Positions 4,589 to 24,607 of a stretch of 64,000 nucleotides of DNA are shown piece by piece. The stretch is from Candidatus Omnitrophota bacterium. GTDB lineage: Bacteria > Omnitrophota > Gorgyraeia > Pluralincolimonadales > Pluralincolimonadaceae. The stretch lies in the NCBI GenBank assembly GCA_028716565.1, contig JAQUPL010000001.1:473476-537475 (forward strand). Direction: 5' to 3'. Position 1 is the first letter of the stretch, and the number at the start of each line of letters is the position of its first letter. The notes below the pieces were generated by a model. That model searched no databases. It was not told where the DNA came from and saw only the letters and a list, made by a program, of their open reading frames with translations. Made by a program: the position numbers and the translations under genes.

Positions 4589-4781
4589 CCGCGTCCCAGA
4601 TGAACTTGTTCGATTTCATCACAAATGCTATGCTCCCCCCGAGCTTTTCCGTCGCCTTCTCCTCGAAAATACCGGTATGGCTGCGGGCAGGTTTTTTGCC
4701 GCTCTTAGATTTTTTGGTTTTTATCTTATAATTCCCGCTCAAGAACCTGTTATTCATCGATAACGACCTCCTTTTTATCAA
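4572..4781 (-). CDS. Small lysine-rich ORF (69 aa) spanning the 160-bp gap between the NeuA-like and Maf-like genes. It may be non-coding.
   Basis: An open frame across a relatively AT-rich intergenic stretch. It has no recognisable domain and its ends overlap both flanking genes. Confidence 0.15.
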   Translation of the reverse strand: MIKRRSLSMNNRFLSGNYKIKTKKSKSGKKPARSHTGIFEEKATEKLGGSIAFVMKSNKFIWDADEKAK

Positions 4782-6848: not shown

Positions 6849-6852
6849 GACC

Positions 6853-7707: not shown

Positions 7708-7708
7708 G

Positions 7709-8701: not shown

Positions 8702-8731
8702 TGTTTTGCTTTAACGCCCTTTTCTCTGGTC

Positions 8732-9397
8732 CTACCAGACCTCTTTTAGTATCATGAACGCCTCTGCGTATTTAAACCCGGCAGAAGCTCCCCGGAACAG
8801 GGCCAGCGCCTCGATATTCTTCTCGCTCCTCGGGAAAGGGTGTCTCTTCATTTCTCCCTTGTAAATACGCATGATCCCTATTTTTTTCTTCAGGTAACCG
8901 GAGATATCCGAAAAACTGTTCGGGACGAAACTCTTCCCCCTTAAAGGCAGGCGGGATTCGGTCTCGGAAAGCACTTCATACATCAGGACCTTTTTCACCG
9001 AGGGCGCGCGGAATGATTTCACCGCGCTTTGCACGGCATCAAAAGCTACCTGGTGGTCGGAATGCGCGTCGCAGTGGTACGGCGCATAGACCCAGGACGG
9101 GGCAAGGTGCGCGATCGCGCCATGCACCGCTTTTACAAGCTCGGAACGCGCAACCGTGTCAAGTCTGGTGGTCGGGAAATCAAGTTTTATCACCTTCGAA
9201 AAACCGTATCTCTTCGCGACAGCGGTGATCTCGCGCTGGCGGGAATTCACCCTGCTCTTGGGATAACCGGCTGCCTCGGAAACATTGGTCAGGATCAGCC
9301 AGGATACTTTATCATTTTTAGCCCGGTGCTTTAAGAGCGTCCCGCCGCAGCCTAAAGTTTCGTCATCGGGATGGGGCGATACGACTAAAATGTTCAT
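8732..9397 (-). CDS. PIG-L/LmbE family N-acetylglucosaminyl deacetylase
   Basis: 221 aa. Signature VVSPHPDDETLGCGGT and HxDH motif region. Confidence 0.8.
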   Translation of the reverse strand: MNILVVSPHPDDETLGCGGTLLKHRAKNDKVSWLILTNVSEAAGYPKSRVNSRQREITAVAKRYGFSKVIKLDFPTTRLDTVARSELVKAVHGAIAHLAPSWVYAPYHCDAHSDHQVAFDAVQSAVKSFRAPSVKKVLMYEVLSETESRLPLRGKSFVPNSFSDISGYLKKKIGIMRIYKGEMKRHPFPRSEKNIEALALFRGASAGFKYAEAFMILKEVW

Positions 9398-9410: not shown

Positions 9411-10565
9411 TTAATAGGTCATCTTTTTTTGCAACAGGCGTTTTCCCTGCGCTGCCTTTTCGAGCTCATCGGCGATCTTTTCGGCGGCCCTGCCGCTGCC
9501 GTAAGGATTGCGGCAGTTCCTTACCTTCCTTAAGAAGGCCTTGTCGGAAACGGCCTTGCGCAACGCTTCCAGGATAGCCCTCTTTTTGTAGGGCACATCG
9601 ATCACGTTCTCCGCCCTGAGCCTCCCCTGCTGGCGGCTGCCGATATTTATACACGCAACTTTAAAGACCGGCGTTTCCATGATGCCGCTGCTGGAATTTC
9701 CCGCTACCGCAGAGGCGATCCTTAATATCCCGAAATAATTCTTCCACCCCAGGCTTTTCCTTATCCTGAAGTGCGGCACCCGGGCATACTCCTTTATCGC
9801 CTTGATCATCCGGTCGCCGCCCGCGTCGTTGCAAGGATAGGTAATTACCGTCTGGCGGCCGAATTCTTTCAGCGCCTCCAGGCTCTCCTTGATCTGTCCG
9901 TAGGCAAGAGCGCTTTCGGTGGTCACGGGATGCTGGGTGAATACTATCACCTGCTTGCCGGGATCGATCTTGAGTTCACGGGCCAGTTCCTGCGGCCCGG
10001 CGTATTCGCCCGATAAATAATTGTCGATGGCGGTCGAACCGACATTAAAAACCCTCCACTTTTCCTCCCCCAGGCCCAATACCCTAAGGTATGAATCCTG
10101 GTTAGAAACGAAGTGCAGGTGCGAAAGCTTGGTGATGCTGTGCCTTACCGAATCATCGAGATTTCCGCCCTGGGAAAGATCACCGCCGAAAAGATGAGCG
10201 ATCGGAATGTTAGAGTAAAAAGCCGCTATCGCCATCGCGTATGTCTCGTAGCGGTCCCCGGCCAAGACAAGGATATCCGGACGCATCGCGCCAAGCAGCC
10301 GCGCGCCTTTCTTTACCAATTCGGCGAAGACGGGAAGCACGTTATCAGGCGTGCCTGGCTGGGATAGATAAACATTTTTGGCCTTAAGCCTGTCCGGATA
10401 TTCGATCTCGGAGTGGGTATTTCCGAACCTTTCCGATAAATGGCTGCCCGAGATGATCAGCCTGACATCAAAATTCCGTCTCGATAAGAGTTCTTTGACC
10501 AAAGGCCGCAAGAGACCGTATTCGGCGCGGTTTCCTGTAAAAAGCGCGATTTTTTTCTTATGCAT
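9411..10565 (-). CDS. UDP-N-acetylglucosamine 2-epimerase (hydrolysing), NeuC/LegG family
   Basis: 384 aa. ALFTGNRAEYGLL...HLFGGD...VGNSSSG motifs typical of NeuC-type hydrolysing 2-epimerases. Confidence 0.8.
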   Translation of the reverse strand: MHKKKIALFTGNRAEYGLLRPLVKELLSRRNFDVRLIISGSHLSERFGNTHSEIEYPDRLKAKNVYLSQPGTPDNVLPVFAELVKKGARLLGAMRPDILVLAGDRYETYAMAIAAFYSNIPIAHLFGGDLSQGGNLDDSVRHSITKLSHLHFVSNQDSYLRVLGLGEEKWRVFNVGSTAIDNYLSGEYAGPQELARELKIDPGKQVIVFTQHPVTTESALAYGQIKESLEALKEFGRQTVITYPCNDAGGDRMIKAIKEYARVPHFRIRKSLGWKNYFGILRIASAVAGNSSSGIMETPVFKVACINIGSRQQGRLRAENVIDVPYKKRAILEALRKAVSDKAFLRKVRNCRNPYGSGRAAEKIADELEKAAQGKRLLQKKMTY

Positions 10566-11349
10566 GCTTATTCCCGCGGACCACTACCATCTCCTTGGAA
10601 ATATCCCATGAGCCAAGACGGACCGAATCAATTTTTTCCCTGCTGGGATCGATGCCGGTCTTCTCGCGGGTTTCCTCAAAAAGCAGCGTGGCAGTATAAT
10701 AACGGATAAATTCGCTTTTATCCGGGAACTTCAATTTGCAGGGAATGATCTCCTTTTCCGCCGCCCCGAAAATATTTTTCACAGCCGGATAGAATTCCTT
10801 TTCGAGGCGTGAACTCCTCAAGGCCGCCTTTTCATCCATTGCGTAATCCAAGCCAAAAACCTTCTTATTGAACTCATACAGCTCTTTGGCGTTATTTTCC
10901 GTAGGGCCGATGAGAAAAACTTCACCGCCGGGTTTCAAGACTCCCTTGATGTCATTAATGACCGCTTCCGCGTCATCCGCGTAATAGATGGAGAAAGCGG
11001 CGATCACACGATCAAAGGTATTTTCAAGGAAAGGAAGCCTGTTGTTCATGTCCCACTGCAGAAGCAGCGGCGTAAAACCGGCGGCCGCTTTCCGGGCCTG
11101 TAAAAGCAGTTCTCTTGACTTGTCGACACCGACTATCCCTCCCCCGCCATTAAGTTTTTTTAAATAGGCCGGGAATAAGTTCCCGTTCCCGCAGCCGATG
11201 TCAAGGATCAAGCCGCCTTTCGCGCCCGGCAAACGGGTCTCCAGCCAATCCTCGAGGCTAAAGCTGGAGAAACGCTTGTGTGCTTCTATCCTGGCGCTTA
11301 AATTTTTCTGGCTTTCGTTATAGCCGAGGCCTTGTGCCGTTTTCGTCAT
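10558..11349 (-). CDS. Class I SAM-dependent methyltransferase
   Basis: 263 aa. ILDIGCGNGNL SAM-binding motif. Overlaps neighbouring genes by 8 and 4 nt. Confidence 0.7.
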   Translation of the reverse strand: MTKTAQGLGYNESQKNLSARIEAHKRFSSFSLEDWLETRLPGAKGGLILDIGCGNGNLFPAYLKKLNGGGGIVGVDKSRELLLQARKAAAGFTPLLLQWDMNNRLPFLENTFDRVIAAFSIYYADDAEAVINDIKGVLKPGGEVFLIGPTENNAKELYEFNKKVFGLDYAMDEKAALRSSRLEKEFYPAVKNIFGAAEKEIIPCKLKFPDKSEFIRYYTATLLFEETREKTGIDPSREKIDSVRLGSWDISKEMVVVRGNKHA

Positions 11350-12350
11350 AAGGTCACCAGCTCATCTTTTTTGAAATTCTTATTAGCCGGCCTGCCAAGC
11401 AGCTTTTCATAGATCACCGGACTCAAGCCGTTGCCGGGCCTTTTTACCGTTATGTTATGGACGGTAAACCTGTCTCCCTTCGCTATGTCCGCGGCAGCTA
11501 CGATGCTTTTCCTGGCAATCTTCCTGTTATTTAATTCGGAGGGCGCAGGTCTTTTGACCCCGTCGCCGAGGGCCGTTTCTATATTGCGGACCGCCTTGAC
11601 CATGGCCCTGAATTCATCCGGTTCAAGGGATGCCTTATGGTCGGGACCGGGCAGGTCCCTGTCCAAAGTAAAATGCTTTTCGATCACAGCCGCGCCTAAT
11701 GCGGCTGCGGCGATAGACACCTCGATGCCCTGCGTATGGTCTGAATAACCCACCTGCACCCGTAGCCTGTTCTTGAGCGTAAGCATGGCGCGCAAATTTA
11801 CTTCATCCATGGGAGCGGGATATTCGGTGGTGCAATGCAGTACGGTGATATCCTCAGGCCTTGTCCCGGAACCGGTAAGGATCCCCATGGCAAAACGCAC
11901 TTCTTTCAGGTCGGACATCCCCGTGGAAAGGATGACCTTTCTTTTAAGCCTCCCGATCTTCCTTAGATACGGCAGGTTGTTTATCTCCCCGGAAGGCACC
12001 TTGAATATCTTCAGTCCGAGGCCCGCCAGGAAATCCACGCTCTTCAGGTCGAACGGCGAAGAAAGAAAGATCACCTTCTTCTTCCGGCAACGCCGCAGTA
12101 ATTCCTTATGGGCGTCGGGGCCAAGCTCCAGCTTTTTTATCATCTCCAGCTGGCTCCCGGTATTGCCCGTGGCTGCCTTCTGGTAAGCGGCCTTAGGCGC
12201 GTACGTGGAGACCAGGGATTCCGCGCTGAATGTCTGGAATTTGACTGCGTCTGCGCCTGCATCTGCCGCGGCATCCACCATCCTCATCGCGACCTTTAGC
12301 GAACCGTTGTGGTTGACCCCGGCTTCGGCAATAATGAATATTTTATGCAT
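11346..12350 (-). CDS. N-acetylneuraminate synthase family enzyme (NeuB/LegI/PseI)
   Basis: 334 aa. FIIAEAGVNHNGS start, the TIM-barrel of the NeuB family, and a C-terminal SAF/antifreeze-like domain. Confidence 0.85.
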   Translation of the reverse strand: MHKIFIIAEAGVNHNGSLKVAMRMVDAAADAGADAVKFQTFSAESLVSTYAPKAAYQKAATGNTGSQLEMIKKLELGPDAHKELLRRCRKKKVIFLSSPFDLKSVDFLAGLGLKIFKVPSGEINNLPYLRKIGRLKRKVILSTGMSDLKEVRFAMGILTGSGTRPEDITVLHCTTEYPAPMDEVNLRAMLTLKNRLRVQVGYSDHTQGIEVSIAAAALGAAVIEKHFTLDRDLPGPDHKASLEPDEFRAMVKAVRNIETALGDGVKRPAPSELNNRKIARKSIVAAADIAKGDRFTVHNITVKRPGNGLSPVIYEKLLGRPANKNFKKDELVTL

Positions 12351-12990
12351 TTTGTTTCATTTCTTTGCAAGGGTTGCCGTAAGCGACCACGCCTTTGCGT
12401 ATGTCGCCGGTGACGACACTGCCCGCGCCTACTACCGTCATTTCCCCTATCTTTACATTCTGGATCACAATGCTTCCCGTGCCGATATGGGAATGGCTGC
12501 CAATGCTTACGCCGCCGCTTAGCAACGCCCCGGGTGAAAGATGCACAAAATCGCCGATCTTGCAGTCATGTTCTACGATAGCACCCGTATTAAGTATGCA
12601 GTTGTCGCCTATACGGGAGCCTGCGTTAACGATCACCCCGGGAGCGATAAAATTGCCCTGCCCAAGGACAGAGCGGGAAGATACCAGCGCATACGGGCTG
12701 ACCAGGTTTGGGAATACGAACCCGGATCTCCTCGCGAGGTTATAGAGTTTAACGCGCAAACGGGTATCACCGACGCTTCCTGCTGAAATAAAACAGTGTT
12801 TTACGCCTTTTCCGGAGAATCGCGGCAGGTCGGTATCGGAGCCGCTTACCGGCACCCCGAAGACCTTCTCCCCGATGCGCTGCTTTACGTCAATTATCCC
12901 GGCGACTTCATATTCTTTAGCGGACAGCAGCAGGTCCAAGACTACCTTGCAATGCCCTCCGGCGCCTATTAGCAATATTTTTTTCTTCAT
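12343..12990 (-). CDS. Sugar O/N-acetyltransferase, NeuD/PglD/LegH family (left-handed beta-helix)
   Basis: 215 aa. N-terminal Rossmann-like motif KILLIGAGGH. C-terminal hexapeptide repeats. Confidence 0.75.
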   Translation of the reverse strand: MKKKILLIGAGGHCKVVLDLLLSAKEYEVAGIIDVKQRIGEKVFGVPVSGSDTDLPRFSGKGVKHCFISAGSVGDTRLRVKLYNLARRSGFVFPNLVSPYALVSSRSVLGQGNFIAPGVIVNAGSRIGDNCILNTGAIVEHDCKIGDFVHLSPGALLSGGVSIGSHSHIGTGSIVIQNVKIGEMTVVGAGSVVTGDIRKGVVAYGNPCKEMKQNA

Positions 12991-12996
12991 ATCAAG

Positions 12997-14067
12997 TTAA
13001 GCCTCGAACTTCTTCAGCATCTCCTGCAAGGCCTCAAACTGCCCCATATCCAGCCACGATTTTTCAGAGACCGGATAGACCCCTATCTTTTCCTTCTTCT
13101 CGATATAGTCCCCGATAAGGTCGGTTATATTGTAAAACCGGTTCTTGGGGATATCACCAAGGACCGAGGCGTCCAAAAGATACATGCCTGTATTTACCAG
13201 GAAGTCATATTCGGGTTTTTCCCTGATGTCCCTGAGGGCCCCGCCTATCCCGATATCGCAGACGCCGTAAGGGATCGTAAAATTCTTCATCGAGCTCACG
13301 AGGGTGATCTTGTTCTTCTTCTCGTTGTGGAACCTCAGTATATCGGTGTAATCCGCCTCGATGAGTATGTCGCAATTGCTCACGAAAAAAGTCTTCTTTA
13401 TCCTGTTCTTCAGCAAGTGGAGGCTTCCTGCGGTGCCCAGGGGTTTGCTTTCAAGGATATAGTTAATCTTGTATTTATGCTCGAAATCACTGAAATACGC
13501 CTTGATCATGTTCGATTTGTAATTCAGCGAAAGGTAGAAATCGTCGCAGCCGTAATCAAAGAACCTGTCGATGATGATCTCTATGATCGGTTTATCGCCG
13601 ATAGGCATCAACGGCTTAGGCAGGACTTTGGTGAACGGATGGAGGCGCACCCCTTCTCCTCCCGCCATGACCACTACCGGGAGCTTCAGTGACTTGTGGT
13701 TCTTCGGTTTGGCCTCAAAAAGGTCCACCCATGAGATGGAGGCGACGACCCTTCTAGTCCCGTCGACCACCGGCAAGCATTCGACTTGGCGCTGGATCAT
13801 CAGGTCCTTCGCGCCTTCCCTGGAAAAACCCTCCTTCAGGACCAGGGGACGGCAGTTCATCGCTTTCTCAAGGCTTTCGCCGAGGCCTTTCCCCTTCAGG
13901 ATCCATCTCCGGATATCGCCGTCGGTGATCGTACCCGCGATCTTCTTCCGGTCATCCACGACGATAAGCGTCTTCTCCCCCATGGCATCCATCTGCTTCA
14001 ATGCCTGCTTGATGCTGCATTTGGGACTTACCAAGACTTTCTTCAATCTTTCCGTCATATCAGTCAC
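12997..14067 (-). CDS. CBS-domain pair fused to a sugar-phosphate nucleotidyltransferase (PtmE-like NTP-transferase)
   Basis: 356 aa. Tandem CBS repeats are followed by VVMAGGEGVRLHPFTKVLPKPL, the NTP_transferase G-rich loop. The architecture matches the GlcN-1-P guanylyltransferase of the GDP-route legionaminic acid pathway. Confidence 0.7.
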   Translation of the reverse strand: MTDMTERLKKVLVSPKCSIKQALKQMDAMGEKTLIVVDDRKKIAGTITDGDIRRWILKGKGLGESLEKAMNCRPLVLKEGFSREGAKDLMIQRQVECLPVVDGTRRVVASISWVDLFEAKPKNHKSLKLPVVVMAGGEGVRLHPFTKVLPKPLMPIGDKPIIEIIIDRFFDYGCDDFYLSLNYKSNMIKAYFSDFEHKYKINYILESKPLGTAGSLHLLKNRIKKTFFVSNCDILIEADYTDILRFHNEKKNKITLVSSMKNFTIPYGVCDIGIGGALRDIREKPEYDFLVNTGMYLLDASVLGDIPKNRFYNITDLIGDYIEKKEKIGVYPVSEKSWLDMGQFEALQEMLKKFEA

Positions 14068-15226
14068 CCCTCCCTAGGCCCCGGATAGCTGAGGTTACCC
14101 GCCTTATCTGTCTCAAATCGAGGTTTGTGCTGCACGGCAGGTTTAGTACGCGCCTCCAATACCGCGGCGCCTTTTCGATTTTATATGCCTGGTTCCTGAG
14201 ATACGGCCTCTGGAGGTGGTTCAGGTACCATACCGGCCTTGTCTGTATGCCCTTCGCCAGCAGGTGCCTCATCGTCTTGTCCCTGTCCGCGCCGAATAGC
14301 TCCTTTTCGATGACCAGCGAATAGAACCAGTAATTCGGCGCCGTGCCTTCCGGGACCCCCAACATCCCGGCCCCTTTGACCCCCTTTAGCAGTTTTTTAT
14401 ATACCGCGTAATTGTCCTTCTTCACCCTTATGAAACCTTTCAACCGTTCGAGCTGCGCCAGGCCGACAGCGGCCTGTAAATTGGTCAGGCGGAAATTGTA
14501 GCCGACCTCATTATGGAGATGTTTTACAGGGTCATCCTTGGCTTGTTCCGTCAGGTACTTTCCTTTTTTCGCCAACAGCCCGTTATCGGTCACGATCATC
14601 CCTCCGCCGCCGGTGGTTATTATCTTGTTCCCGTTAAACGAATATACGCCGATGTCGGAAACTGTCCCCGTGAACCTGCCCTTATAAGCGCCGGAGGTGT
14701 AATATGCCCCCAGGCTTTCGGTCGCGTCCTCGATGACCTTAAGGCGGTACTTCCTGGCGATCTTCATTAGTTCTTCCATGTCGCAGGGGTTCCCAAAGAT
14801 ATGGACCGGGATAATCGCCTTGACCACCCTTCCGGTCTTTTTGTTCCTTAACCCTGCTTTAGTGGCCGTGCATTCCTTAGCGCAAAATTCCCGGACTTTT
14901 ACGCAATCGATATTCAAATAATCGTCGCAGTCCATAAAGACCGGTTCCGCGCCGAGGTATTTGACGACATTGACCGGCGCGATAAATGTAAGCGTCGGCA
15001 CGATCACCTCATCGTCCCTGCCGGCTCCGCAAAGGGCAAGCGCGATATGAAGGCCCGCTGTGCCGTTTACGCAGGCGACCGCATGTTTGGCTTTTACGTA
15101 GCGGCAGACGGCGTCCTCGAAATCCTTTACAAAACCTCCGGAAGAAGATACCCAGTTGGTCTCGACGCACTTCTTGAGGTACTGCAGTTCCCTGCCGCTC
15201 AGGTTTGGGACGGAAAGTGGGATCAT
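14060..15226 (-). CDS. DegT/DnrJ/EryC1/StrS family sugar aminotransferase (LegC/PglE-like)
   Basis: 388 aa. HAVACVNGTAGL, VIEDATESLG, and SFNGNKIITTGGGG containing the PLP lysine. Confidence 0.8.
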   Translation of the reverse strand: MIPLSVPNLSGRELQYLKKCVETNWVSSSGGFVKDFEDAVCRYVKAKHAVACVNGTAGLHIALALCGAGRDDEVIVPTLTFIAPVNVVKYLGAEPVFMDCDDYLNIDCVKVREFCAKECTATKAGLRNKKTGRVVKAIIPVHIFGNPCDMEELMKIARKYRLKVIEDATESLGAYYTSGAYKGRFTGTVSDIGVYSFNGNKIITTGGGGMIVTDNGLLAKKGKYLTEQAKDDPVKHLHNEVGYNFRLTNLQAAVGLAQLERLKGFIRVKKDNYAVYKKLLKGVKGAGMLGVPEGTAPNYWFYSLVIEKELFGADRDKTMRHLLAKGIQTRPVWYLNHLQRPYLRNQAYKIEKAPRYWRRVLNLPCSTNLDLRQIRRVTSAIRGLGRGD

Positions 15227-15239
15227 TTTTTAAGGGTCA

Positions 15240-16220
15240 CTATACGTTATAGATTCCGGATTTATAGATATCTTTATTTTCCTTAAACCACGCTATCGTC
15301 TTCAAAAGGCCTTTTTCCAGGCTGTATTTCGGCGACCAGCCCAACAAGCGCCGGGCCTTGGCATTGTCGGCCAACAACCGTTCGACTTCGCTTTTTTCCG
15401 GTCTTTTCCTTTCAAGGGCCGAATCGATCGTTACGTCGCGGTGAAGGGACAGCGAGATCAGCCGCGCCAAGTCCCCTATTGAGATTTCCGAGTTGCTGCC
15501 GAGATTGATGACCTCGCCTACGGCTCTCCGGCATTCTCCCGCACGGATGAACCCGTCAACCGTGTCTTCCACGTATGTCAAGTCGCGGGTCGGGGCCAGG
15601 GCACCGAGCTTTATCTTCTTGCCGCCGTAAAGTATCTGCGTGATGATAGTCGGGATCACCGCGCGCGCCGATTGCCTCGGGCCGTAGGTATTGAACGGCC
15701 GGACGACCGCGACCGGAAGGTCGAACGAACGGTAAAATGACAAGGCCAGGAGGTCGGCCGCGGATTTAGTCGCCGCATATGGCGATTGGGGGTTTATTGG
15801 GTGGTTTTCCGTGATCGGGACAAACTGCGCCGTCCCGTAGATCTCGCTTGTGGACGTGTGGACTACCTTTTTTACGTCCGAATCCTTCGCGGCCTGTAAA
15901 ATATTCAAAGACCCCCTGATATTGGTCTCGACGTATGCCTCCGGGGAATGGTATGAATAAGGTATCCCGATCAGGGCGGCAAGATGGAAAACAGTCTCGA
16001 CATCGCGCATTGCATCCCGGACAATGTCGGCATCCCGTATATCGCCGGAGATTATCTCTATGCGGTTTTTACACCGTGAGGACTCCAGCCACCCCCAGGA
16101 ATTCCTCGAATTGTAATGGACGAATGCTTTTACTTTATACCCGGAAGCGGATAATTTTTCGGTTAAATGGCTCCCGATAAAACCCCCGGCGCCCGTCACC
16201 AAAACTTTTTTCTTGGTCAT
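15240..16220 (-). CDS. NAD-dependent nucleotide-sugar 4,6-dehydratase/epimerase (extended SDR, LegB/PseB-like)
   Basis: 326 aa. VLVTGAGGFIGSHL. YxxxK region PYAATKSAAD. STSEIYG. Confidence 0.8.
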   Translation of the reverse strand: MTKKKVLVTGAGGFIGSHLTEKLSASGYKVKAFVHYNSRNSWGWLESSRCKNRIEIISGDIRDADIVRDAMRDVETVFHLAALIGIPYSYHSPEAYVETNIRGSLNILQAAKDSDVKKVVHTSTSEIYGTAQFVPITENHPINPQSPYAATKSAADLLALSFYRSFDLPVAVVRPFNTYGPRQSARAVIPTIITQILYGGKKIKLGALAPTRDLTYVEDTVDGFIRAGECRRAVGEVINLGSNSEISIGDLARLISLSLHRDVTIDSALERKRPEKSEVERLLADNAKARRLLGWSPKYSLEKGLLKTIAWFKENKDIYKSGIYNV

Positions 16221-17445: not shown

Positions 17446-17489
17446 AGGGCAATTGACTTGCGGATAACGTTCTAAGAATGAACGATACT

Positions 17490-17518
17490 AGTTTACGCTA
17501 TAACTTATGTGCTGTCAA
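17490..17518 (-). promoter_or_regulatory. Sigma70-type promoter TTGACA-N17-TAAACT driving the regulator, NusG-paralog and sugar operon
   Basis: On the minus strand TTGACA is the reverse complement of 17513..17518 and TAAACT of 17490..17495, with a 17-nt spacer. It lies about 45 nt upstream of the ATG at 17445. Confidence 0.4.
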
Positions 17519-17561
17519 TAGGAAAAAATGGGGGGATTTTCTTGGTGGGAACCGGTACCGG

Positions 17562-18467
17562 TTATGCCTTGGATGCAACTATGTATGATACCAATTTTGC
17601 CAATTCCTGGCTTGGAATATCCTTGTACCTTTTGCAGATCTCGATGCCTTTTAACTCATTTAAAGCTGTCTTATCGGCCTCGGATTCCTCGTGGTCGAGC
17701 TTAAATCCCGCCTTTTTGAAGATCTCAACATACTCAAAATGCCTTAAACGGTTTTGGTAATCCAGGCGGTCCAGCGATAAGATGATCTTATGGATATTCT
17801 CGCTGAACTTAAGGTAGTTAAGCTTCGGGATGCCACTGTCGTTATGCGCCCAGTGGTCGGAATTGTCGATAATATGGCACATCTTGCCGCTATCCTTCAG
17901 TATCCGGTTAAAAACCCTGGCTATGCCCGGGATCGCCTCCTCCGGTATATGCTCCAGGGTCGCCCGCGATATTATAATATCGACGGACTTGTCCGGCAGG
18001 CCGGCGTCCTCGATATCGCACGGCGCAATATATTGCATATTAAAACTTTCCAGCATCTTCTCCAAGGTAAGGCCTTTATCTATCGCCAGTTTTCTTTCAA
18101 TTTCAGGGATAGGGATCTTCAGCCCGGCGGAGATCGTCTCCCTGTAGCCCCGGAGGCCTTCTACGGTCTTTATCATCATCCTTTTGGTGATCAGCCTTTG
18201 TATGTCTATTAATATTATCTTCCTGCACCCTGAGAGGTAAAAAATGACGGGGATCGCCGGCATCCAGCCCGGTCCGGTTTCCAGCAAAGTCTTACCCTCT
18301 GTATTACAGCCGACGGAACGCAATAATTCGACTTGCCGCATCCCCTGCTCTACCGCTTCCGGGGCAACACGGCCGGGAAATAGATCTCCCTTTAACTTCC
18401 GGATTTGCCTTGAAAACGGCAGGAAGCCCGATAAAGTATTCTTCAAAAACCTTAATTGCCATTTCAT
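17562..18467 (-). CDS. Class I SAM-dependent methyltransferase
   Basis: 301 aa. LLETGPGWMPAIP...IILIDI motif region. Methyltransf_23-like. Confidence 0.6.
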   Translation of the reverse strand: MKWQLRFLKNTLSGFLPFSRQIRKLKGDLFPGRVAPEAVEQGMRQVELLRSVGCNTEGKTLLETGPGWMPAIPVIFYLSGCRKIILIDIQRLITKRMMIKTVEGLRGYRETISAGLKIPIPEIERKLAIDKGLTLEKMLESFNMQYIAPCDIEDAGLPDKSVDIIISRATLEHIPEEAIPGIARVFNRILKDSGKMCHIIDNSDHWAHNDSGIPKLNYLKFSENIHKIILSLDRLDYQNRLRHFEYVEIFKKAGFKLDHEESEADKTALNELKGIEICKRYKDIPSQELAKLVSYIVASKA

Positions 18468-19960
18468 CTTTTTTTACGGGAGGCGAGCATTTCAAACTGA
18501 TGGCGGATATAGAAAAACGCGTTCTTGGCAACGAGCGAGATTAGCGCTTGCCCGCCGCGCATGAGGCGCCGGAAATCTTCCGTTGTATCCATGGACCTCA
18601 GGTTCGCCAGCCATATGCGGGGGGAACCGTAATATTCCAAAAAAGCGCGCTTGTACCAATATTTCATTCCCTCGATCCCGAAATTCGGGTTTATGTATAC
18701 GGGGTTATCGAAATCGATGGATAAGAAATCGCTCCATTTGGCATCCTGGCGCAAACCGCCGTCCGCCTTGCAACGTTCATACAGGGCTGTCCCCGGATAC
18801 GGCACCGGCAGGTAAAACATCGCCATCTCCGCGTTTAACGTCTTGGCATAACGGATAGTGTTGCGGACCATCTCTTCCGTCTCGCCGGGCAGGCAGATAA
18901 TAAAGCTGGTAACATACTTGAAGCCGGCCTTACGTATCCATTCCACGCCGCGGGTCTGTTTCTCGACGGTAGTGTTCTTTTGGACGATATCGAGCGACGC
19001 CTGGTTCCCTGATTCTATGCCCAGGACGATCTTCCTCCCTCCCGCCTTGTACATGGCGTCCAAAAGCTCCGGGTCGACGGTGTCGGCGCGCGTGTTGCAT
19101 ATCCATTTCAGGCCCAGTTTTGCCTTTATCATGAGATCCATTAATTTCATTATATAAGCCCTGTTCATCGTAAATGTGGAATCCTGGAAATATATTCCGC
19201 GCGCGCCTTTCTCGTCTTTAAGGACCCTCAATTCCTCAATAACGCGTTCCGGCGTATAGCGCCGCGCTTTCTTACCCGAGATTATAGACGCGCCGCAATA
19301 AGTGCAGCAATAAGGACAGCCGCGCTGCGTTATGAACGGGTAACTGGGTAATGTCACATATTGGGACGGATGCGGGACATATCGTTTTAGATCAATGTCG
19401 CTGTAAAGCCCCGGGGGCAGGCTATCGAGGTCGTCTATGAAGCCGCGAGGCGGATTAACAGCTATCCTCTTCCCGTCCCTATAAACCAGGCCCTTGATGC
19501 CCGAACGGTTGTTATCCCCCCCGGCCAAGGATAGCACCAACTCCTCTAAAGTATTCTCTCCCTCCTGGAGGATTATGAAGTCTATCTCAGGACACTGCTG
19601 CATGCTTAATTCCGGCATCGTCGTCACATGGATATTGCCCATGACAAGCTTGCAATCCGGCAGGACCTTCTTTACGAATGCACCTGTCGCGAAAGCATAA
19701 TCGGCCGTGGGGGTGTATACCGGCAATGCGACTACATCGTACCGGGCGCTGCGGAGGCGGGCGGCAAGGGACGCCTCGTGAAGGTCCTCCAGGATGGTAT
19801 CGAGGAACTCGACATCGTAGCCGCGATATTTAAGCCGGGTATATATCGAGATCATTCCCATAGGCGGCAGGTAGCCTTTTTGGCTTTTAACGCTGCCCCA
19901 GGCGGCTTTTGACGGGTATAACGGCTCCATCAATAAGATCTTAAGTTTTTTTGGGTTCAT
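18464..19960 (-). CDS. B12-binding domain radical SAM protein
   Basis: Start MNPKKLKILLMEP at 19960 (ATGA overlap with the upstream stop), or M at 19970. N-terminal B12-binding-like domain. GCPYCCTYC radical SAM motif. Confidence 0.75.
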   Translation of the reverse strand: MNPKKLKILLMEPLYPSKAAWGSVKSQKGYLPPMGMISIYTRLKYRGYDVEFLDTILEDLHEASLAARLRSARYDVVALPVYTPTADYAFATGAFVKKVLPDCKLVMGNIHVTTMPELSMQQCPEIDFIILQEGENTLEELVLSLAGGDNNRSGIKGLVYRDGKRIAVNPPRGFIDDLDSLPPGLYSDIDLKRYVPHPSQYVTLPSYPFITQRGCPYCCTYCGASIISGKKARRYTPERVIEELRVLKDEKGARGIYFQDSTFTMNRAYIMKLMDLMIKAKLGLKWICNTRADTVDPELLDAMYKAGGRKIVLGIESGNQASLDIVQKNTTVEKQTRGVEWIRKAGFKYVTSFIICLPGETEEMVRNTIRYAKTLNAEMAMFYLPVPYPGTALYERCKADGGLRQDAKWSDFLSIDFDNPVYINPNFGIEGMKYWYKRAFLEYYGSPRIWLANLRSMDTTEDFRRLMRGGQALISLVAKNAFFYIRHQFEMLASRKKR

Positions 19961-20595
19961 TTTTTCCATGCTACATAGAGCGCGTTCAAATACCATTGCG
20001 TCCAAAAATATTTCTTTTTAATATTTACGAAACCGGCGGCTTTAAGCCTCCCGGTGATCTCTGCGGCGGTAAGGTAATACTCCTCATCGCCGGACATCCC
20101 CCTCTCCGAATCCACATCGTGGTGCGTGCCGAAAATTTTATCGTACAGCATTACGACCTTGTGCACCAGGATCTCGGCCAGCGGGTCACCCATCGTGACG
20201 ATAATATTGCCCCTATCCTTCAGGCAACGGTACGCCTCCCGCAACTCAACATCCCTTAAAGGCCTGGGTATGTGGTTCAGGTTCGCGATAAAAGTGGCCG
20301 AATCGAAGCTGCGGTCGTCAAAAGGGAAATGGGAAGTGTCTTTTATGACATTCTCTTCCGAAAGCCCCTCATACCGGTATACATCTATGCCCTTCCCGTT
20401 CCCCTTCAAGTATTCCGCGATGAACTTATTGTGCCTGCCGCATCCTACATCAAGGCAATATCCGAGAACCTCTTTCCTTGCGTAAGAGAACCTTTCCGAA
20501 GCGAGCGAGGATAACCCCCATTTGTCTTCCTCGAATAGAGTGACCGCGCGCAGCGGAAAAGTCATGAAGTCCACGATCTCCCTGAAAGACGGCAT
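19957..20595 (-). CDS. Class I SAM-dependent methyltransferase
   Basis: 212 aa. LDVGCGRHNKF SAM motif. Confidence 0.65.
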   Translation of the reverse strand: MPSFREIVDFMTFPLRAVTLFEEDKWGLSSLASERFSYARKEVLGYCLDVGCGRHNKFIAEYLKGNGKGIDVYRYEGLSEENVIKDTSHFPFDDRSFDSATFIANLNHIPRPLRDVELREAYRCLKDRGNIIVTMGDPLAEILVHKVVMLYDKIFGTHHDVDSERGMSGDEEYYLTAAEITGRLKAAGFVNIKKKYFWTQWYLNALYVAWKK

Positions 20596-20597
20596 CG

Positions 20598-21872
20598 TTA
20601 TACCTTTATTTTAGGCCTGACAATATACGCGTATGCACCGTTCATACCCAAAAGGAACCAAAGGTAGCGCATCGGCAAAATATCAATGCTGAACCCCACC
20701 AGCAAGAAAGCTATTATCCCCGCCGCTATTATCCTTGTGTCGCCGGACTTCATGGCCAGCCCCATGTGGGAACCCAATAAAACCAATATGGCCAGCAGGC
20801 CCGCTATCCCCGTTTCCGCGGCCCAGCCAAAATACGTGGAGTGAGGGTCTTTAGTCCTCCATAAAGGGTCGTCCGGGTCGAATATAGACTCTCTCGCCTT
20901 ATCCCAATCGAAGTAATCCGCCAGATTGCGGTTATACCTGCCCGGCCCCACCCCGAAAATCGGGTGGTCTTTCCACATCTTTAACCCGGCCTCCGACTGC
21001 AGGTAATATTCCGTGTTTTTCGTGGTCATCTTAAGCGGGTTAAGCTGCACCGGAAAGACCCAGATCACTACCGTCGCTAAAGCCAGCGCGGAATATAAAA
21101 GGGTGAAAAGGCTTGCGGAGATCTTTAATAGCGCGTATTTCCTGACAGGCGTTAACATGAACAAACCCGCCGTAGCCAGCAAAAATACTCCCGACGCGGT
21201 CCTGCTTTTCGTCAGGGCGGCCGCCAATATGTGCAGGCACAGCAACGCAAGGTATATCCCGGCCTTTTTGCCGTCCTTTATCCTCTTTTTCATAAGCAAA
21301 AGTATGACGGCTGTGCCTGTTATCAAATACGCGGCGAGCATGTTCGGGTTGCTGAATGTAGAGGTAATCCTCAAATCAAAATGGACCGCGCCTGGGAAAA
21401 ATATCAATTCAGACTGCGGATTAAGTGTAGGCACGAGCGAATTAGGCGCGCCTGTGGCGCAGGCAGCGGCATACCCCATCAATCCCAATACGCATACGGA
21501 CGCGCTTGTCCACGCCCACACACGTAAATAATAGTACCAGTCGATTTCGTCCCTGACCGAAATAACGATCGCGATATACATGACGCACAGGTATGCTATC
21601 CCCGAATATTCTATGAAATCTACCAGCCGCGGTTTAGCCAGGAAAAGCGAGACCGCAAATGTCGTTAATAAGAAAACCAGGGAATAGAGGTTTGGGATCC
21701 CGCGTTTCAGAGATATTCCCCGTTTGACGGCCTGGTAAACGACCCAGAGGAACAAAAAGATGAACACTATTTCCGTATACTGTATCTTGCGCTGGAAATA
21801 CGGGAGCGAGGGCATCTTTACGAAAGGCATCAGCGCGATAAAAAGGCTTAACAGGATCTTAGTTATTACCAC
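20598..21872 (-). CDS. O-antigen ligase/polymerase family membrane protein (Wzy_C domain)
   Basis: 424 aa and polytopic (about 10 TM). A periplasmic loop with conserved R/H follows the TM block LTKSRTASGVFLL. Confidence 0.65.
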   Translation of the reverse strand: MVITKILLSLFIALMPFVKMPSLPYFQRKIQYTEIVFIFLFLWVVYQAVKRGISLKRGIPNLYSLVFLLTTFAVSLFLAKPRLVDFIEYSGIAYLCVMYIAIVISVRDEIDWYYYLRVWAWTSASVCVLGLMGYAAACATGAPNSLVPTLNPQSELIFFPGAVHFDLRITSTFSNPNMLAAYLITGTAVILLLMKKRIKDGKKAGIYLALLCLHILAAALTKSRTASGVFLLATAGLFMLTPVRKYALLKISASLFTLLYSALALATVVIWVFPVQLNPLKMTTKNTEYYLQSEAGLKMWKDHPIFGVGPGRYNRNLADYFDWDKARESIFDPDDPLWRTKDPHSTYFGWAAETGIAGLLAILVLLGSHMGLAMKSGDTRIIAAGIIAFLLVGFSIDILPMRYLWFLLGMNGAYAYIVRPKIKV

Positions 21873-23721
21873 GGGAGTTCCTCCACATGGAGAAAACTAA
21901 TAAATTATACAGCTTGTAAGCGTTGTCTTCCTTCCCTGACGCATGACTTGCATATAATGACCTTACGTAATCCGCGTCGAATTTTACCTCCGAGAGGCGG
22001 CATAATTTATCCGTTTCGTCGAATAACAGGTCCCTGAAACCGCGCTCCTCTTTTAACCATTTTCTTAGCGGCATATTAAACCCTTCCTTCTTACGGGAAG
22101 TGACGCAGGCGGGCAGGTCTTCGGCCAGTATCTTCCGCAACAATTTTTTGCTCTGGTGCCCGAAAACTTTTTCTATGAAAATATGGTCCAGGAGGGGGAC
22201 CCTTGCCTCTACGGAATTGGCCATGCACATCCTGTCTACCTTCGTCAGCATGTCGCTCGGCAGGTATGTATTCAGGTCGAGATATTTGTATTTACTGACG
22301 CCTTTTAGCCTGTCCGACCTTTCGAAATACGGCCGGTAAAAATCATCGAGTTCGGACAGGGTTTTTTCGCTCGCGACTTCCGGCGATGCCAATTGCCGGA
22401 TATCCCGGTCATCGAATATCCGCCTCCAATAAAGGTGCGAGTAGGACGGTTCCCGGTCCGCGAACTTCACGAACCGCCTCAACTTTTCGTCGATTCCTAC
22501 TTTCTTGCCCGATACGGGTAACAGGCCGGCTACCCCTGAAGCGGCATTCTTGATAAAACCGGGGAGCATCCTGTAATACGGGGCTATGGCATCCGCGATA
22601 TAAGTGTCGTAACCGCCGAAGACCTCATCGCCTCCCTCACCTGTCAGGACGACTTTAACGCGCTTATTGGCCATTTTGGCGAGGAAATGGACCCCCACCA
22701 TCGAAGAATCGGCAAACGGCTCATCGAGCCCGGAGACGATCTCGGGAAATTCTCTGAGGAATCTCCCGCCGTCTATAATATCTACAAAATGCTCGGCGCC
22801 GTAGCGCTCGCTTACTATGCGGGAAAACCTGGTCTCATCATGCGAAGGTTCGGAAAACCCTACGGAGAAGGCGGGGATGTTATCCTGGTAACGCGAAAAA
22901 TGGCGCAATACAATACTGGAATCTATGCCTCCGCTGAGGAAGATGCCAATCGGGACATCGCCTATCAGGTGCGCCTTTACCGATTCATCTATTGCGGAAT
23001 CAACCTCATCCTCTTTCTGCTGTTTTCCGCCTGGACGCGCCAACGCCGATGACCCGGCATCCCAGTAGCGGCGCTCCTCTATTTTTCCTTCTTTATATAC
23101 CAGATAATGGGCGGGCTGGAGGCATTTTACGCCTTCATAGATGGTGCGGGGTTGCACTACGTAGTTAAAGCTAAGATACATATAGAGGCTCTGCGGGTCT
23201 ACCTTCAGGCCCAATCCCCGGCAGGCCTCCAAAGAACGTATTTCTGAGGAAAAATATATCCCGTCATCTACCGGCATATAGACGAGAGGTTTTATGCCGA
23301 ACCTGTCCCTGGCCAGTACCAGGCATTTTAAGCGGTCGTCCCATATACTTATGGCGAACATGCCCCTGATCTGGCCTAAGAAATCTACTCCCCATTCCTC
23401 GTAAGCATGCGCGATTACTTCAACGTCGCTTTTTGTGTAAAATTTATGCCCTTTGCTTCTCAATCTTTCCGCGAGATCGTAAAAATTATATATCTCGGCA
23501 TTTGCCGTCACCCAAATATCTTTATTTTCGTTATGGATCGGCTGGCTTCCGCCGCTCAGGTCCACTATGCTTAACCTCCTGACGGCCAGCCCCGCCCCGT
23601 CCTTCAGGAAATAACCTTCTTCGTCCGGACCCCGGCGGATCATCGGCCCGTTCATGGACATGAGCCTATCCCGGGCGTCAAAATCCAGCTTCTTAACGGC
23701 GAACCCGCATATACCGCACAT
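21859..23721 (-). CDS. Asparagine synthase (glutamine-hydrolysing) family amidotransferase (AsnB/WbpS-like)
   Basis: 620 aa. N-terminal MCGICGF (Ntn Cys2). SGGIDSS PP-loop ATP pyrophosphatase motif. Confidence 0.85.
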   Translation of the reverse strand: MCGICGFAVKKLDFDARDRLMSMNGPMIRRGPDEEGYFLKDGAGLAVRRLSIVDLSGGSQPIHNENKDIWVTANAEIYNFYDLAERLRSKGHKFYTKSDVEVIAHAYEEWGVDFLGQIRGMFAISIWDDRLKCLVLARDRFGIKPLVYMPVDDGIYFSSEIRSLEACRGLGLKVDPQSLYMYLSFNYVVQPRTIYEGVKCLQPAHYLVYKEGKIEERRYWDAGSSALARPGGKQQKEDEVDSAIDESVKAHLIGDVPIGIFLSGGIDSSIVLRHFSRYQDNIPAFSVGFSEPSHDETRFSRIVSERYGAEHFVDIIDGGRFLREFPEIVSGLDEPFADSSMVGVHFLAKMANKRVKVVLTGEGGDEVFGGYDTYIADAIAPYYRMLPGFIKNAASGVAGLLPVSGKKVGIDEKLRRFVKFADREPSYSHLYWRRIFDDRDIRQLASPEVASEKTLSELDDFYRPYFERSDRLKGVSKYKYLDLNTYLPSDMLTKVDRMCMANSVEARVPLLDHIFIEKVFGHQSKKLLRKILAEDLPACVTSRKKEGFNMPLRKWLKEERGFRDLLFDETDKLCRLSEVKFDADYVRSLYASHASGKEDNAYKLYNLLVFSMWRNSRGNN

Positions 23722-23728
23722 AAAATCC

Positions 23729-24607
23729 CTATTTATATTTCTCTAAGCGGAGGGAGGCGATCTGGTCGCAAATAATGCCCAAAAGCACGCTTAGGATGCC
23801 GGATATGACTATTATTAACGCGCCTATGGATAAGCCCTGTTTTACCGTCACGAATTTGTAAGCGCCGTAACCGGCGCCTATAGTGAACAGGAATATGCCG
23901 ATGGAAAAAAATATCCTTATCGGGTCGAAAAGCGCTATCAGCCTCAATATTAATACGATAATACGGCTGCCGTCCCTAAACTGCTTTACGTGGCTTACGC
24001 CCTGCCGCTTCCTTGCCATGATCCTGCAGAATTCGATAGAGAGCCCGCTCTTTATGAAAACGATCGTCGACGTGACCGAGAACGAAAATTGGTCGGACAA
24101 CAAACCCAGGTATTTTTCGATGACGCTTTTCCTCGTGACCCTGAAACCGCAGTTGACGTCCTTGATCTCCGTATCGGCGATAAAATTCGTGACCCATTTC
24201 AAAACGAATTTCCCGAGGCTCCGGCTTTCCGCCAGTTCGCGCGCGTTCATCCTTTCGCCGATGACCATGTCGTTACCTTCGTTCAATTTTTCGACCATTT
24301 TCTTTATATCGCCGGGGTTATGCTGGCCGTCGCCGTCTAAAAAGACCAGGACCTCGTTGCGGGCATTCCTTATGCCGGTCTTCAGCGAAGCCCCGTAACC
24401 GAGGTTCTTTTTGTGCCTGATGACCCGCGCGCCCGAATCTCCCGCTATGAGCCCGCTGTTGTCGGTAGAGGCGTCGTCCACGACGATGACCTCGTCGATA
24501 TCAACCTCTCCTTTTGACGCTGTGATCTCGCTTAAGACCCCTTTCAGGGCCTTCTCTTCGTTGTAGACGGGGATGATCACAGATATTTTGCCCGGATTTT
24601 TGTTCAT
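23729..24607 (-). CDS. GT2 family polyprenyl-phosphate glycosyltransferase (ArnC/GtrB/DPM1-like) with C-terminal TM helices
   Basis: 292 aa. VIIPVYNEE, VVDDASTDNS and DGDGQH (DxD) motifs. Two C-terminal hydrophobic helices. Confidence 0.8.
   Translation of the reverse strand: MNKNPGKISVIIPVYNEEKALKGVLSEITASKGEVDIDEVIVVDDASTDNSGLIAGDSGARVIRHKKNLGYGASLKTGIRNARNEVLVFLDGDGQHNPGDIKKMVEKLNEGNDMVIGERMNARELAESRSLGKFVLKWVTNFIADTEIKDVNCGFRVTRKSVIEKYLGLLSDQFSFSVTSTIVFIKSGLSIEFCRIMARKRQGVSHVKQFRDGSRIIVLILRLIALFDPIRIFFSIGIFLFTIGAGYGAYKFVTVKQGLSIGALIIVISGILSVLLGIICDQIASLRLEKYK

Follow-up and report, generated by a model that had tools for sequence, protein, structure and literature searches.

Introduction

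Radical SAM (S-adenosylmethionine) enzymes of the cobalamin (B12) type are known in the tailoring of antibiotics, cofactors, hopanoids and archaeal lipids, and thousands of them still have no assigned function. Two genes for such enzymes, called rSAM1 and rSAM2 here, lie on a 64,000-nucleotide stretch of DNA from a Candidatus Omnitrophota bacterium (assembly GCA_028716565.1, contig JAQUPL010000001.1, positions 473,476 to 537,475), which is referred to as the window. They belong to a surface-glycan region, and it is quite likely that both encode glycan-tailoring enzymes. The model favoured here, in which the region consists of two transcription units, each with its own sugar-tailoring radical SAM enzyme and with C-methylation as the preferred reaction, is held tentatively, somewhat short of an even chance. 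C-methylated sugars in the surface glycan, which an earlier note on this DNA had suggested, are a reasonable prediction.

Described systems

In the biosynthesis of moenomycin, a B12 radical SAM enzyme (MoeK5), an NAD-dependent epimerase (MoeE5) and an AsnB-like amidotransferase (MoeF5), which are encoded together, convert a lipid-phosphate-linked uronic acid into C-methyl galacturonamide, the sugar called unit F. The remaining details of this pathway (epimerase, amidotransferase, lipid-phosphate carrier) are reportedly found in the work of Ostash and Walker. MoeK5 is listed as single C-methylase (PMC9204698). GenK, GenD1 and Fom3 have the class B architecture of cobalamin radical SAM enzymes, and methylate an unactivated carbon of a sugar or of a nucleotide-linked substrate.

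Other radical SAM enzymes act on sugars and do not methylate them. HpnJ works on a lipid-linked amino sugar, whose ring it contracts in the formation of the hopanoid cyclitol ether, and its gene lies next to that of a GT2 (family 2 glycosyltransferase), HpnI. AprD4 also has a sugar substrate and is responsible for the 3'-deoxygenation of apramycin.

ArnC/ArnT, GtrB/GtrC and PpgS/Rv3779 are systems in which a small GT2 with two C-terminal transmembrane (TM) helices works with a polytopic membrane protein. In the Arn and PpgS pathways, the carrier-linked sugar is tailored before transfer. None of the three systems has a radical SAM or an AsnB-like step.

The Maf/DUF115 loci and the ptm/leg loci of Campylobacter contain the equivalents of LegB, LegC, LegH, LegI and LegG, a CMP-nonulosonate synthetase and a PtmE-like CBS-nucleotidyltransferase, and the literature searched on Maf and legionaminic loci makes no mention of radical SAM genes. 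The literature searched links no B12 radical SAM enzyme to nonulosonates, O-antigens or capsules, and no such enzyme is assigned there to nonulosonic acids or to the polysaccharides of the cell surface. The earlier note had remarked that such alkylated sugars are rarely documented for surface polysaccharides.

Two cobalamin-type radical SAM enzymes

The two enzymes are encoded at the following positions.

18464..19960, minus strand: rSAM1, B12-binding-domain radical SAM protein, 498 aa (PF02310, PF04055)
2136..3581, minus strand: rSAM2, B12-binding-domain radical SAM protein, 481 aa (PF02310, PF04055)

The two Pfam domains pass their cut-offs in both proteins: the B12-binding domain PF02310 (cut-off 32.1) scores 60.0 bits in rSAM1 and 44.9 bits in rSAM2, and the Radical_SAM domain PF04055 scores 101.3 and 59.8 bits, respectively. 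The CxxxCxxC motif reads CPYCCTYC in rSAM1 (C215/C219/C222) and CPFRCKYC in rSAM2 (C210/C214/C217), and these cysteines are invariant in the 37 and 36 aligned members of the two families. The earlier note had described the two enzymes as paralogous. The motif and the B12-binding domain which it saw are indeed present in both, but the sequences are only 25% identical by BLASTP (24% over 446 aligned columns) and fall into separate clades of a neighbour-joining tree, with 98% (rSAM1) and 100% (rSAM2) of 100 bootstraps. Their conserved neighbourhoods are wholly different. Judged by these comparisons, rSAM1 and rSAM2 are members of one superfamily in separate orthogroups, not recent paralogues.

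The AlphaFold2 models of rSAM1 and rSAM2 (pLDDT of 90.2 and 91.5) both consist of a beta-alpha Rossmann domain followed by a radical SAM barrel. When they are compared to the PDB with Foldseek, the matches are AprD4 (top), TsrM, MgmA, OxsB, CysS and TokK for rSAM1, and TsrM, OxsB, AprD4, MgmA, CysS and TokK for rSAM2; apart from AprD4, these are B12 radical SAM enzymes of solved structure, and the MgmA/QCMT structure is PDB 9CCB (PMC12931638). There is no universal cobalamin-binding motif, and AprD4, which does not bind cobalamin, and the ArsL homologues show that a related fold can be cobalamin-free (PMC12931638). Thus, the fold alone is no proof of cobalamin use.

In the N-terminal domain, the profile of the rSAM1 family can be aligned to the cobalamin domains of four enzymes, TokK (from residue 67), OxsB (142), TsrM (24) and CysS, and the TokK stretches GGxH and D-x5-GEGE are also present in rSAM1. 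Against the N-terminal domain of AprD4, on the contrary, the profile gives 0.4 bits and no alignment, the match being confined to the radical SAM barrel. The N-terminal domain of the rSAM2 profile likewise aligns with the cobalamin domains of CysS, TsrM and TokK. The cobalamin-domain features, whose absence would have refuted the reading of the earlier note, are therefore present in both proteins. Judged by the profiles and the models, rSAM1 and rSAM2 both have the class B architecture (a B12-binding Rossmann domain and a radical SAM barrel), and they may bind cobalamin.

At the position of TsrM R69 and OxsB N186, the rSAM1 family has an aromatic residue, F or Y. The lower face of the cobalamin is hydrophobic in the radical methylases (review PMC12931638), and the aromatic residue would fit such an environment. 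It is treated as a hint only, because the loop alignments with TokK and with TsrM/OxsB disagree by two positions.

The genes around rSAM1

rSAM1 is encoded at the end of the following series of genes.

28942..31594, minus strand: rmlD, rmlB and rmlA, dTDP-6-deoxyhexose precursor genes, operon head
27623-28933, minus strand: NDP-sugar 6-dehydrogenase of the TviB/WecC type, precursor gene
26674-27618, minus strand: TviC-like 4-epimerase, precursor gene
25551-26672, minus strand: DegT aminotransferase, precursor gene
24628-25554, minus strand: UXS/ArnA-like short-chain dehydrogenase/reductase (SDR), precursor gene
23729..24607, minus strand: GT2 of the polyprenyl-phosphate sugar synthase type, 292 aa, two C-terminal TM helices (PF00535)
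21859..23721, minus strand: AsnB-like glutamine amidotransferase, 620 aa (PF00733, PF13537, PF13522; TIGR01536 407 bits, cut-off 267)
20598..21872, minus strand: Wzy_C-domain polytopic membrane protein, 424 aa, ~10 TM segments predicted by hydropathy scan (PF04932, 50.4 bits)
19957..20595, minus strand: MT-A, class I SAM methyltransferase, 212 aa (PF13489 34.3 bits, cut-off 27; PF08241 29.5 bits, cut-off 21.2; motif I LDVGCG)
17562..18467, minus strand: MT-B, class I SAM methyltransferase, 301 aa, last gene of this upstream operon (PF08241 27.2 bits, cut-off 21.2; motif I LETGPGW)

The orthologues of rSAM1 (41-66% identical) were surveyed in 11 loci, from Omnitrophota, Elusimicrobiota, Thermodesulfobacteriota, Alphaproteobacteria (including Magnetospirillum sp. 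UT-4), Patescibacteria and unassigned metagenomic contigs; most contexts come from look-ups of the exact proteins (12 in all for rSAM1 and rSAM2). A scan of genome contigs with the rSAM1 family alignment gave, among the matches listed, almost only proteins that are 25-32% identical, with one locus (L006) at 41%, and a scan of metagenome contigs with the single rSAM1 protein gave nothing closer than 31%.

The most consistent partner of rSAM1 is the AsnB-like gene. It is found near 8 of the 11 orthologues, compared to 3 of 79 loci that contain the 25-32% identical relatives (Fisher p = 3e-7, the loci not being independent), and in seven loci other than the window the protein is 32-37% identical to that of the window. 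A GT2 of the same type and of about 290 aa occurs in 6/11 loci, five of which are outside the window and have homologues that are 33-40% identical. The best NCBIfam matches of the window GT2 are AglJ, PpgS, the Dol-P hexose transferase and ArnC, none of which reaches its cut-off; because of these matches and of the two C-terminal TM helices, the protein is read as a polyprenyl-phosphate sugar synthase type, which distinguishes it from HpnI. In six loci, the GT2 or AsnB gene has the gene of a polytopic membrane protein at its side; that of the window encodes the Wzy_C protein, a candidate extracytoplasmic ligase or transferase, and no mutual similarity between these membrane proteins was detected by BLAST. 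The rSAM1 orthogroup is thus distinct and widespread, and three kinds of gene recur near it, those for the amidotransferase, for the GT2 and for a polytopic membrane protein. The last two recall ArnC/ArnT, GtrB/GtrC and PpgS/Rv3779, but every family score is below its cut-off, and the radical SAM and AsnB-like genes have no counterpart there.

One locus (L109) repeats the larger arrangement of the window: AsnB, GT2 and rSAM1 are followed by MarR, by a gene of the NusG family and by legionaminic genes. Two loci, from a PVC-group bacterium (L024) and from Nealsonbacteria (L046), contain at about 8.4-11.4 kb distant B12 radical SAM relatives which form a pair with 100% support; each of these genes directly adjoins that of a GT2, and the scores of these two proteins against the GT2 of the window are 158-177 bits. 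The association with GT2 therefore reaches past the rSAM1 orthogroup.

The earlier note had drawn attention to a cassette made of a methyltransferase, a B12 radical SAM gene and a second methyltransferase, with ATGA-coupled starts. The three genes, and rSAM2 as a fourth, are on the minus strand where it had placed them; both methyltransferases are above their Pfam cut-offs and have the glycine-rich motif I, and the ATGA overlaps on the two sides of rSAM1 can be read directly in the sequence (MT-A stop and rSAM1 start at 19960-19957, rSAM1 stop and MT-B start at 18467-18464). From the overlap with MT-A, the start of rSAM1 is the ATG at 19960, which gives 498 aa, rather than that of the 513-aa open reading frame (ORF) which begins with TTG. 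A class I methyltransferase directly adjoins rSAM1 in 4/11 loci and lies within about 5 kb in two more, and one locus (L100) has the same sandwich as the window. However, no orthologue of MT-A or MT-B was found by BLAST or phmmer in the other rSAM1 loci (seven other loci in the case of MT-B), and the methyltransferase family that recurs beside rSAM1 is related to MT-A and MT-B by its fold only. The sandwich is therefore not a conserved cassette, and this reading was rejected; the result speaks against the proposed model.

It also speaks against the model that two rSAM1 orthologues have no glycan genes nearby: one is next to a PBP1 gene (L101), and one is between nuo genes and cdaA (L110). They would be expected if the substrate of rSAM1 were a lipid, either the polyprenyl carrier or a membrane lipid, and if the glycan context merely reflected localisation at the membrane. 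There are precedents in archaea: Gmm, which has 31% identity to MoeK5, is a B12 radical SAM methylase of glycerol monoalkyl glycerol tetraethers (GMGT), and GrsA/B, which are ring synthases, are B12-binding radical SAM enzymes too (PMC11214058). Archaeal relatives of rSAM1 at ~30% identity are also common among the matches listed. A lipid substrate nevertheless appears improbable, considering the AsnB-like genes in 8/11 and the GT2 in 6/11 loci, the absence of lipid-synthesis genes of the Tes, Mss or Gms type from every examined locus, and the lack of any predicted membrane segment in rSAM1.

A possible route to a C-methylated sugar

Under the favoured model, the TviB/WecC-type 6-dehydrogenase and the TviC-type 4-epimerase would produce an N-acetylhexosaminuronic acid, and the GT2 would load this uronic-acid-type sugar onto polyprenyl phosphate. 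The AsnB-like amidotransferase would then convert the sugar carboxylate into a uronamide. In the step assigned to rSAM1, whose substrate would be the carrier-linked or nucleotide-linked uronamide, the 5'-deoxyadenosyl radical would take a hydrogen from an unactivated sugar carbon, which would receive a methyl group from methylcobalamin. MT-A and MT-B may add ordinary O- or N-methyl groups, and the membrane protein may pass the finished sugar to an acceptor outside the cytoplasmic membrane.

The parallel with moenomycin lies in the B12 radical SAM enzyme, the epimerase and the AsnB-like amidotransferase that are encoded together, and the PF02310 scores are alike (57 bits for a MoeK5 orthologue, 60 bits for rSAM1). 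The proteins used for this comparison are encoded in one run of genes on the megaplasmid pSCL4 of Streptomyces clavuligerus: the epimerase is 35% identical to that of the window, the AsnB-like protein 30%, and the radical SAM protein 29% identical to rSAM1. Near the gene of the last are those for two ABC transporters, for the epimerase, for the AsnB-like protein, for a protein that matches nothing in Pfam and for a degenerate relative of AsnB. This radical SAM gene was identified as a MoeK5 orthologue because of these neighbours and because a moe cluster on pSCL4 is stated to be syntenic to the one in S. ghanaensis (PMC3814723).

Two points weaken the case for the uronamide. Identities of 30-35% are ordinary for these families, so that the parallel is an analogy and not a sign of shared descent; moreover, moenomycin is an antibiotic which is secreted and which glycosyltransferases of its own assemble on farnesyl-phosphoglycerate, whereas the window encodes a GT2 of the GtrB/ArnC/PpgS type in a cell-envelope glycan operon. 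Genes for a DegT aminotransferase and for a UXS/ArnA-like SDR are present in the operon too, and for this reason it is equally possible that the sugar handled by the GT2 is an amino sugar rather than a uronamide. That the substrate of rSAM1 is a uronamide must accordingly be regarded as rather doubtful.

rSAM2 and the nonulosonate cassette

rSAM2 is encoded near the end of a second series of genes.

16825-17445, minus strand: MarR-type exopolysaccharide (EPS) regulator, which heads the nonulosonate operon (TIGR04176 68.6 bits, below the cut-off of 88)
16312-16821, minus strand: UpxY/NusG-family antiterminator (NF033644 UpxY 105 bits, cut-off 100)
9411..16220, minus strand: legionaminic-acid-type pathway, with LegB, LegC, CBS-nucleotidyltransferase (PtmE-like), NeuD/LegH, NeuB/LegI, a methyltransferase and NeuC/LegG
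4750..9397, minus strand: tailoring and activation genes, with PIG-L deacetylase, Gfo/Idh/MocA oxidoreductase, methyltransferase, 456-aa DegT aminotransferase and CMP-nonulosonate synthetase
4572..4781, minus strand: conserved 69-aa ORF, between the CMP-nonulosonate synthetase and MptE-like genes
3584..4588, minus strand: MptE-like/DUF115 protein, 334 aa (PF01973 61.4 bits, cut-off 34.6)
1..2139, minus strand: gene downstream of rSAM2, cut by the window edge (>713 aa), with an N-terminal domain of ~635 aa followed by a cytidylyltransferase (PF02348, residues 638-712)

The scores of LegB (TIGR04180, 491 bits, cut-off 475), LegC (TIGR04181, 465 bits, cut-off 420), NeuD/LegH (TIGR03570, 221 bits, cut-off 161), NeuB/LegI (TIGR03569, 501 bits, cut-off 400) and NeuC/LegG (TIGR03568, 392 bits, cut-off 236) are all above cut-off. 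The CMP-nonulosonate synthetase-like gene scores 137 bits on the PseF model, below its cut-off of 206. As judged from these matches, the window holds a complete legionaminic-acid-type pathway (LegB/LegC/NeuD/NeuB/NeuC), which resembles the Maf/DUF115 and ptm/leg loci.

The rSAM2 orthogroup is large (at least 120 members): all 120 matches listed are at least 53% identical, and they include proteins from Nitrospirae, Ca. Magnetobacterium, Dissulfurispiraceae, Planctomycetes, Dehalococcoidales and Rokubacteria. Four loci were surveyed. The order 456-aa DegT, CMP-nonulosonate synthetase, ORF of 60-69 aa, MptE-like gene, rSAM2 and ~630-aa protein is kept in three loci (L102-L104; Nitrospirae, Ca. 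Magnetobacterium and Planctomycetes), in three phyla and at 59-72% identity to the window. These loci have further genes in common with it, for the PIG-L deacetylase, the Gfo/Idh/MocA oxidoreductase, NeuC and a methyltransferase, and the tailoring and activation genes as a group have orthologues in the same order in the three loci (49-72% identity). The MptE-like orthologues, 59-66% identical, are directly upstream of the rSAM2 orthologues, and the protein encoded downstream of rSAM2 is 42% identical to that in the same position of L104; its ~635-aa domain is homologous to proteins annotated PFTS_polysacc (PF27878) in precomputed annotation. Because this order is kept across three phyla, rSAM2 belongs, on the evidence of gene context, to a fixed cassette for the tailoring and transfer of a legionaminic-acid-type sugar.

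The MptE-like protein is a candidate nonulosonate transferase. A PF01973 protein is encoded near a CMP-synthetase gene in Maf loci too, but the protein of the window has only 334 aa and scores 31.6 bits (cut-off 670) on the Maf/PseD model, over 52 of its 640 positions. The glycosylation of flagellin was considered as the purpose of the nonulosonate operon; it is unsupported, as no flagellin or flagellar genes were found in the 64-kb window.

Within this cassette, rSAM2 may alkylate, or otherwise modify by radical chemistry, the nonulosonate or its N-acyl group, the simplest modification being C-methylation. The step would take place around the activation or the transfer of the nonulosonate.

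The small ORF raises the question of a peptide substrate. In L102-L104, ORFs that are 46-63% identical occupy the same position and share the C-terminal motif LGGSIAFVMKSNKFVWDD; including the window, an ORF of 60-69 aa with a conserved C-terminal half is thus found at this place in four phyla. Its product, encoded two genes upstream of rSAM2, could be the substrate of rSAM2 and also be glycosylated by the MptE-like protein, which would give a small modified glycopeptide. Many B12 radical SAM methylases do act on ribosomal peptides, and the NCBIfam models of methylases of ribosomally synthesised and post-translationally modified peptides (RiPP) ApyD and TIGR03975 give 70 and 48 bits. These scores are far below cut-off, however, the small ORF matches no family (no Pfam hit), its conserved neighbours include neither a protease nor an exporter of the kind usual in RiPP loci, and the rest of the cassette is entirely sugar chemistry. 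A peptide substrate is thus highly improbable.

The window copy of rSAM2 has an in-frame deletion (at ~2690-2695, after residue ~297) of a 17-aa loop, GLQPxC-x7-H-x4-C. This Cys/His/Cys loop is present in 34/36 family members, including relatives that are 77-82% identical to the window copy. The deletion tells against a tailoring role of this particular protein, and it would be explained if the window copy were impaired or inactive, a decaying member of the cassette, with no contribution to the glycan. Several observations make such a decay very improbable: the reading frame is unbroken and has translational coupling to both of its neighbours, all the cluster cysteines and the other invariant residues are retained, another member of the family (P0168) lacks the same loop, and the AlphaFold2 model is confident across the region of the deletion.

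Two further observations concern radical SAM genes in nonulosonate loci. Proteins of 340-375 aa with Radical_SAM and SPASM domains recur in L001, L002, L102, L103, L104 and L109, and the window has none. The Planctomycetes locus L104 contains, at 17381-17491, a further B12-binding radical SAM gene (607 aa) which starts at the edge of the locus.

Methylation or another radical reaction

The earlier note had placed the two enzymes among the class B radical SAM methylases. The architecture agrees with this assignment, as seen above with profiles and predicted structures, but membership of a known methylase family does not follow from the curated models: neither rSAM1 nor rSAM2 reaches the cut-off of any NCBIfam family, those of methylases included, and the best sub-threshold matches are the non-methylases BchE and HpnJ. 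The scores are as follows.

BchE (TIGR02026): rSAM1 220.9 bits, rSAM2 96.1 bits, cut-off 481
HpnJ (TIGR03471): rSAM1 197.8 bits, rSAM2 79.3 bits, cut-off 578
Sden_1168 (P-methylase): rSAM1 148 bits, cut-off 575
PhpK (P-methylase): rSAM1 139 bits, cut-off 600
BzaD: rSAM1 127 bits, cut-off 450
TIGR04072 (lipid-biosynthesis B12 radical SAM), the profile which the earlier note had suggested and which neither protein satisfies: rSAM1 122.2 bits, rSAM2 53.6 bits, cut-off 360
AprD4 family (NF033070): rSAM1 99.1 bits over residues 226-421 only, rSAM2 24.5 bits, cut-off 500

rSAM2 scores below rSAM1 on all the tabulated models. The curated methylase models PhpK, Sden_1168, KedN5, HpnR and those of RiPP methylases give only 31-148 bits, with cut-offs of 280-700; the likeness to GenK, GenD1 and Fom3 is one of overall architecture and of proposed reaction.

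Several other results count, like these, against methylation. rSAM1 is about equally distant from MoeK5, HpnJ and BchE, with only ~26-30% identity to each (tblastn and tree comparison), and forms its own clade; the MoeK5 orthologue (27-29% identity to rSAM1) groups with BchE outside this clade, and HpnJ is in a weakly supported sister group of it. Homology thus cannot decide between methylation, ring contraction and oxidation. AprD4 (PDB 6FD2) is the best PDB match of rSAM1 both by sequence (E 1e-24) and by fold (TM-score 0.73/0.79). Finally, the rSAM1 family has an invariant Ala two positions past the third cluster cysteine, where TokK has Trp, although the residue is Val in MgmA/QCMT.

These results bring up the main rival explanation, in which rSAM1, rSAM2 or both carry out non-methylating radical chemistry on a sugar: a ring contraction like that of HpnJ, a dehydration or deoxygenation like that of AprD4, an epimerisation, or an oxidation like that of BchE. 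The cobalamin would then be an electron sink or be unused, and every methyl group would come from the neighbouring class I methyltransferases. HpnJ is the second-best curated match of rSAM1, its alignment is near full length (rSAM1 residues 87-493), and, like the sugar proposed for rSAM1, its substrate is lipid-linked (glucosamine) and its gene adjoins a GT2. AprD4, for its part, is a cobalamin-free sugar diol-dehydratase. However, the BchE, HpnJ and AprD4 scores all fall far short of the cut-offs of these families, rSAM1 and rSAM2 have no chlorophyll context and there is no hpn (hopanoid) gene within the 64-kb window, and the AprD4 match leaves the N-terminal domain unaligned. In the loci examined, neither an AprD3-like reductase nor a deacetylase, which an HpnK-dependent route would need, is conserved beside rSAM1. 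Lastly, methylases are the majority of the characterised enzymes with this architecture. Taken as a whole, non-methylating chemistry seems unlikely, although a serious candidate, and C-methylation, the reaction of the favoured model, falls just short of an even chance.

rSAM1 and rSAM2 thus appear, from the comparisons made here, to be uncharacterised subfamilies of a known kind of enzyme, in a setting, that of cell-surface glycans, which has no characterised member.

Organisation of the region

The surface-glycan region spans ~33 kb, from before position 1 to ~33.6 kb, on a single strand, the minus strand, which carries essentially all the real genes of the window. Both radical SAM genes are therefore inside sugar operons, as the earlier note had it, and rSAM2 is in that of legionaminic acid. 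The gene arrangement suggests two transcription units, with one cobalamin-type radical SAM gene in each.

The genes from rmlA (31594) to MT-B (17562) abut or overlap, and for this reason unit 1 (31.6-17.6 kb) reads as a single operon. From GT2 through MT-B, the genes are overlapping or nearly abutting, and the end of the Wzy_C gene is only 2 nt from the start of MT-A. Unit 2 would extend from 17.4 kb to past position 1, with the MarR and UpxY genes at its head and, at its end, rSAM2 and the downstream gene, to which rSAM2 is coupled by an ATGA overlap at 2139-2136. The two units are separated by a gap.

17446..17561, minus strand: intergenic gap between the units, 116 nt, with the palindrome AACCGGTACCGGTT and then a promoter-like TTGACA-17-TAAACT (consensus matches only)

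The palindrome is perfect and lies immediately 3' of the MT-B stop; the promoter-like site and then the MarR/UpxY pair follow. The 131-nt stretch here folds better than its shuffled versions (z = -2.8).

Upstream of the glycan region are housekeeping genes (OstA-like, ROK, two GGDEF, ABC ATPase, AccD, DnaJ/DnaK, HrcA, HflX, MiaA, MiaB-like, RsmB and SpoIIE). The two GGDEF genes, just upstream of the glycan region, are tandem GAF-GGDEF diguanylate cyclase genes (36658-39587, minus strand). At 49944-52115 on the minus strand, a MiaB-like methylthiotransferase (UPF0004 and Radical_SAM) is fused to TPR repeats and to a C-terminal SPOR peptidoglycan-binding domain, which is an unusual combination.

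Meaning for surface glycans

A broader proposal is that GT2, AsnB and rSAM1 form a widespread and undescribed envelope-decoration system, in which a C-alkylated uronamide, or a sugar like it, would be assembled on a lipid carrier and transferred outside the membrane, as the counterpart in primary metabolism of moenomycin unit F, and that the rSAM2 cassette makes a C-alkylated nonulosonate of the legionaminic-acid type. In this complete form, the proposal is speculative and should be considered improbable. Should both modules C-alkylate their sugars, they would provide the first known examples of cobalamin radical SAM chemistry in the synthesis of cell-surface glycans.

The two compact modules, which are found across phyla, are concrete and expressible sets of three to six genes with which C-alkylated sugars could be tested for in the surface glycans of uncultivated anaerobes. 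If C-alkylation does not occur and the enzymes do not methylate, the same sets of genes would reveal a new radical reaction on sugars. If it does occur, it would widen the chemical range of the sialic-acid-like sugars and uronamides of bacteria, and the structure of the envelope glycan would be tied to the availability of cobalamin.

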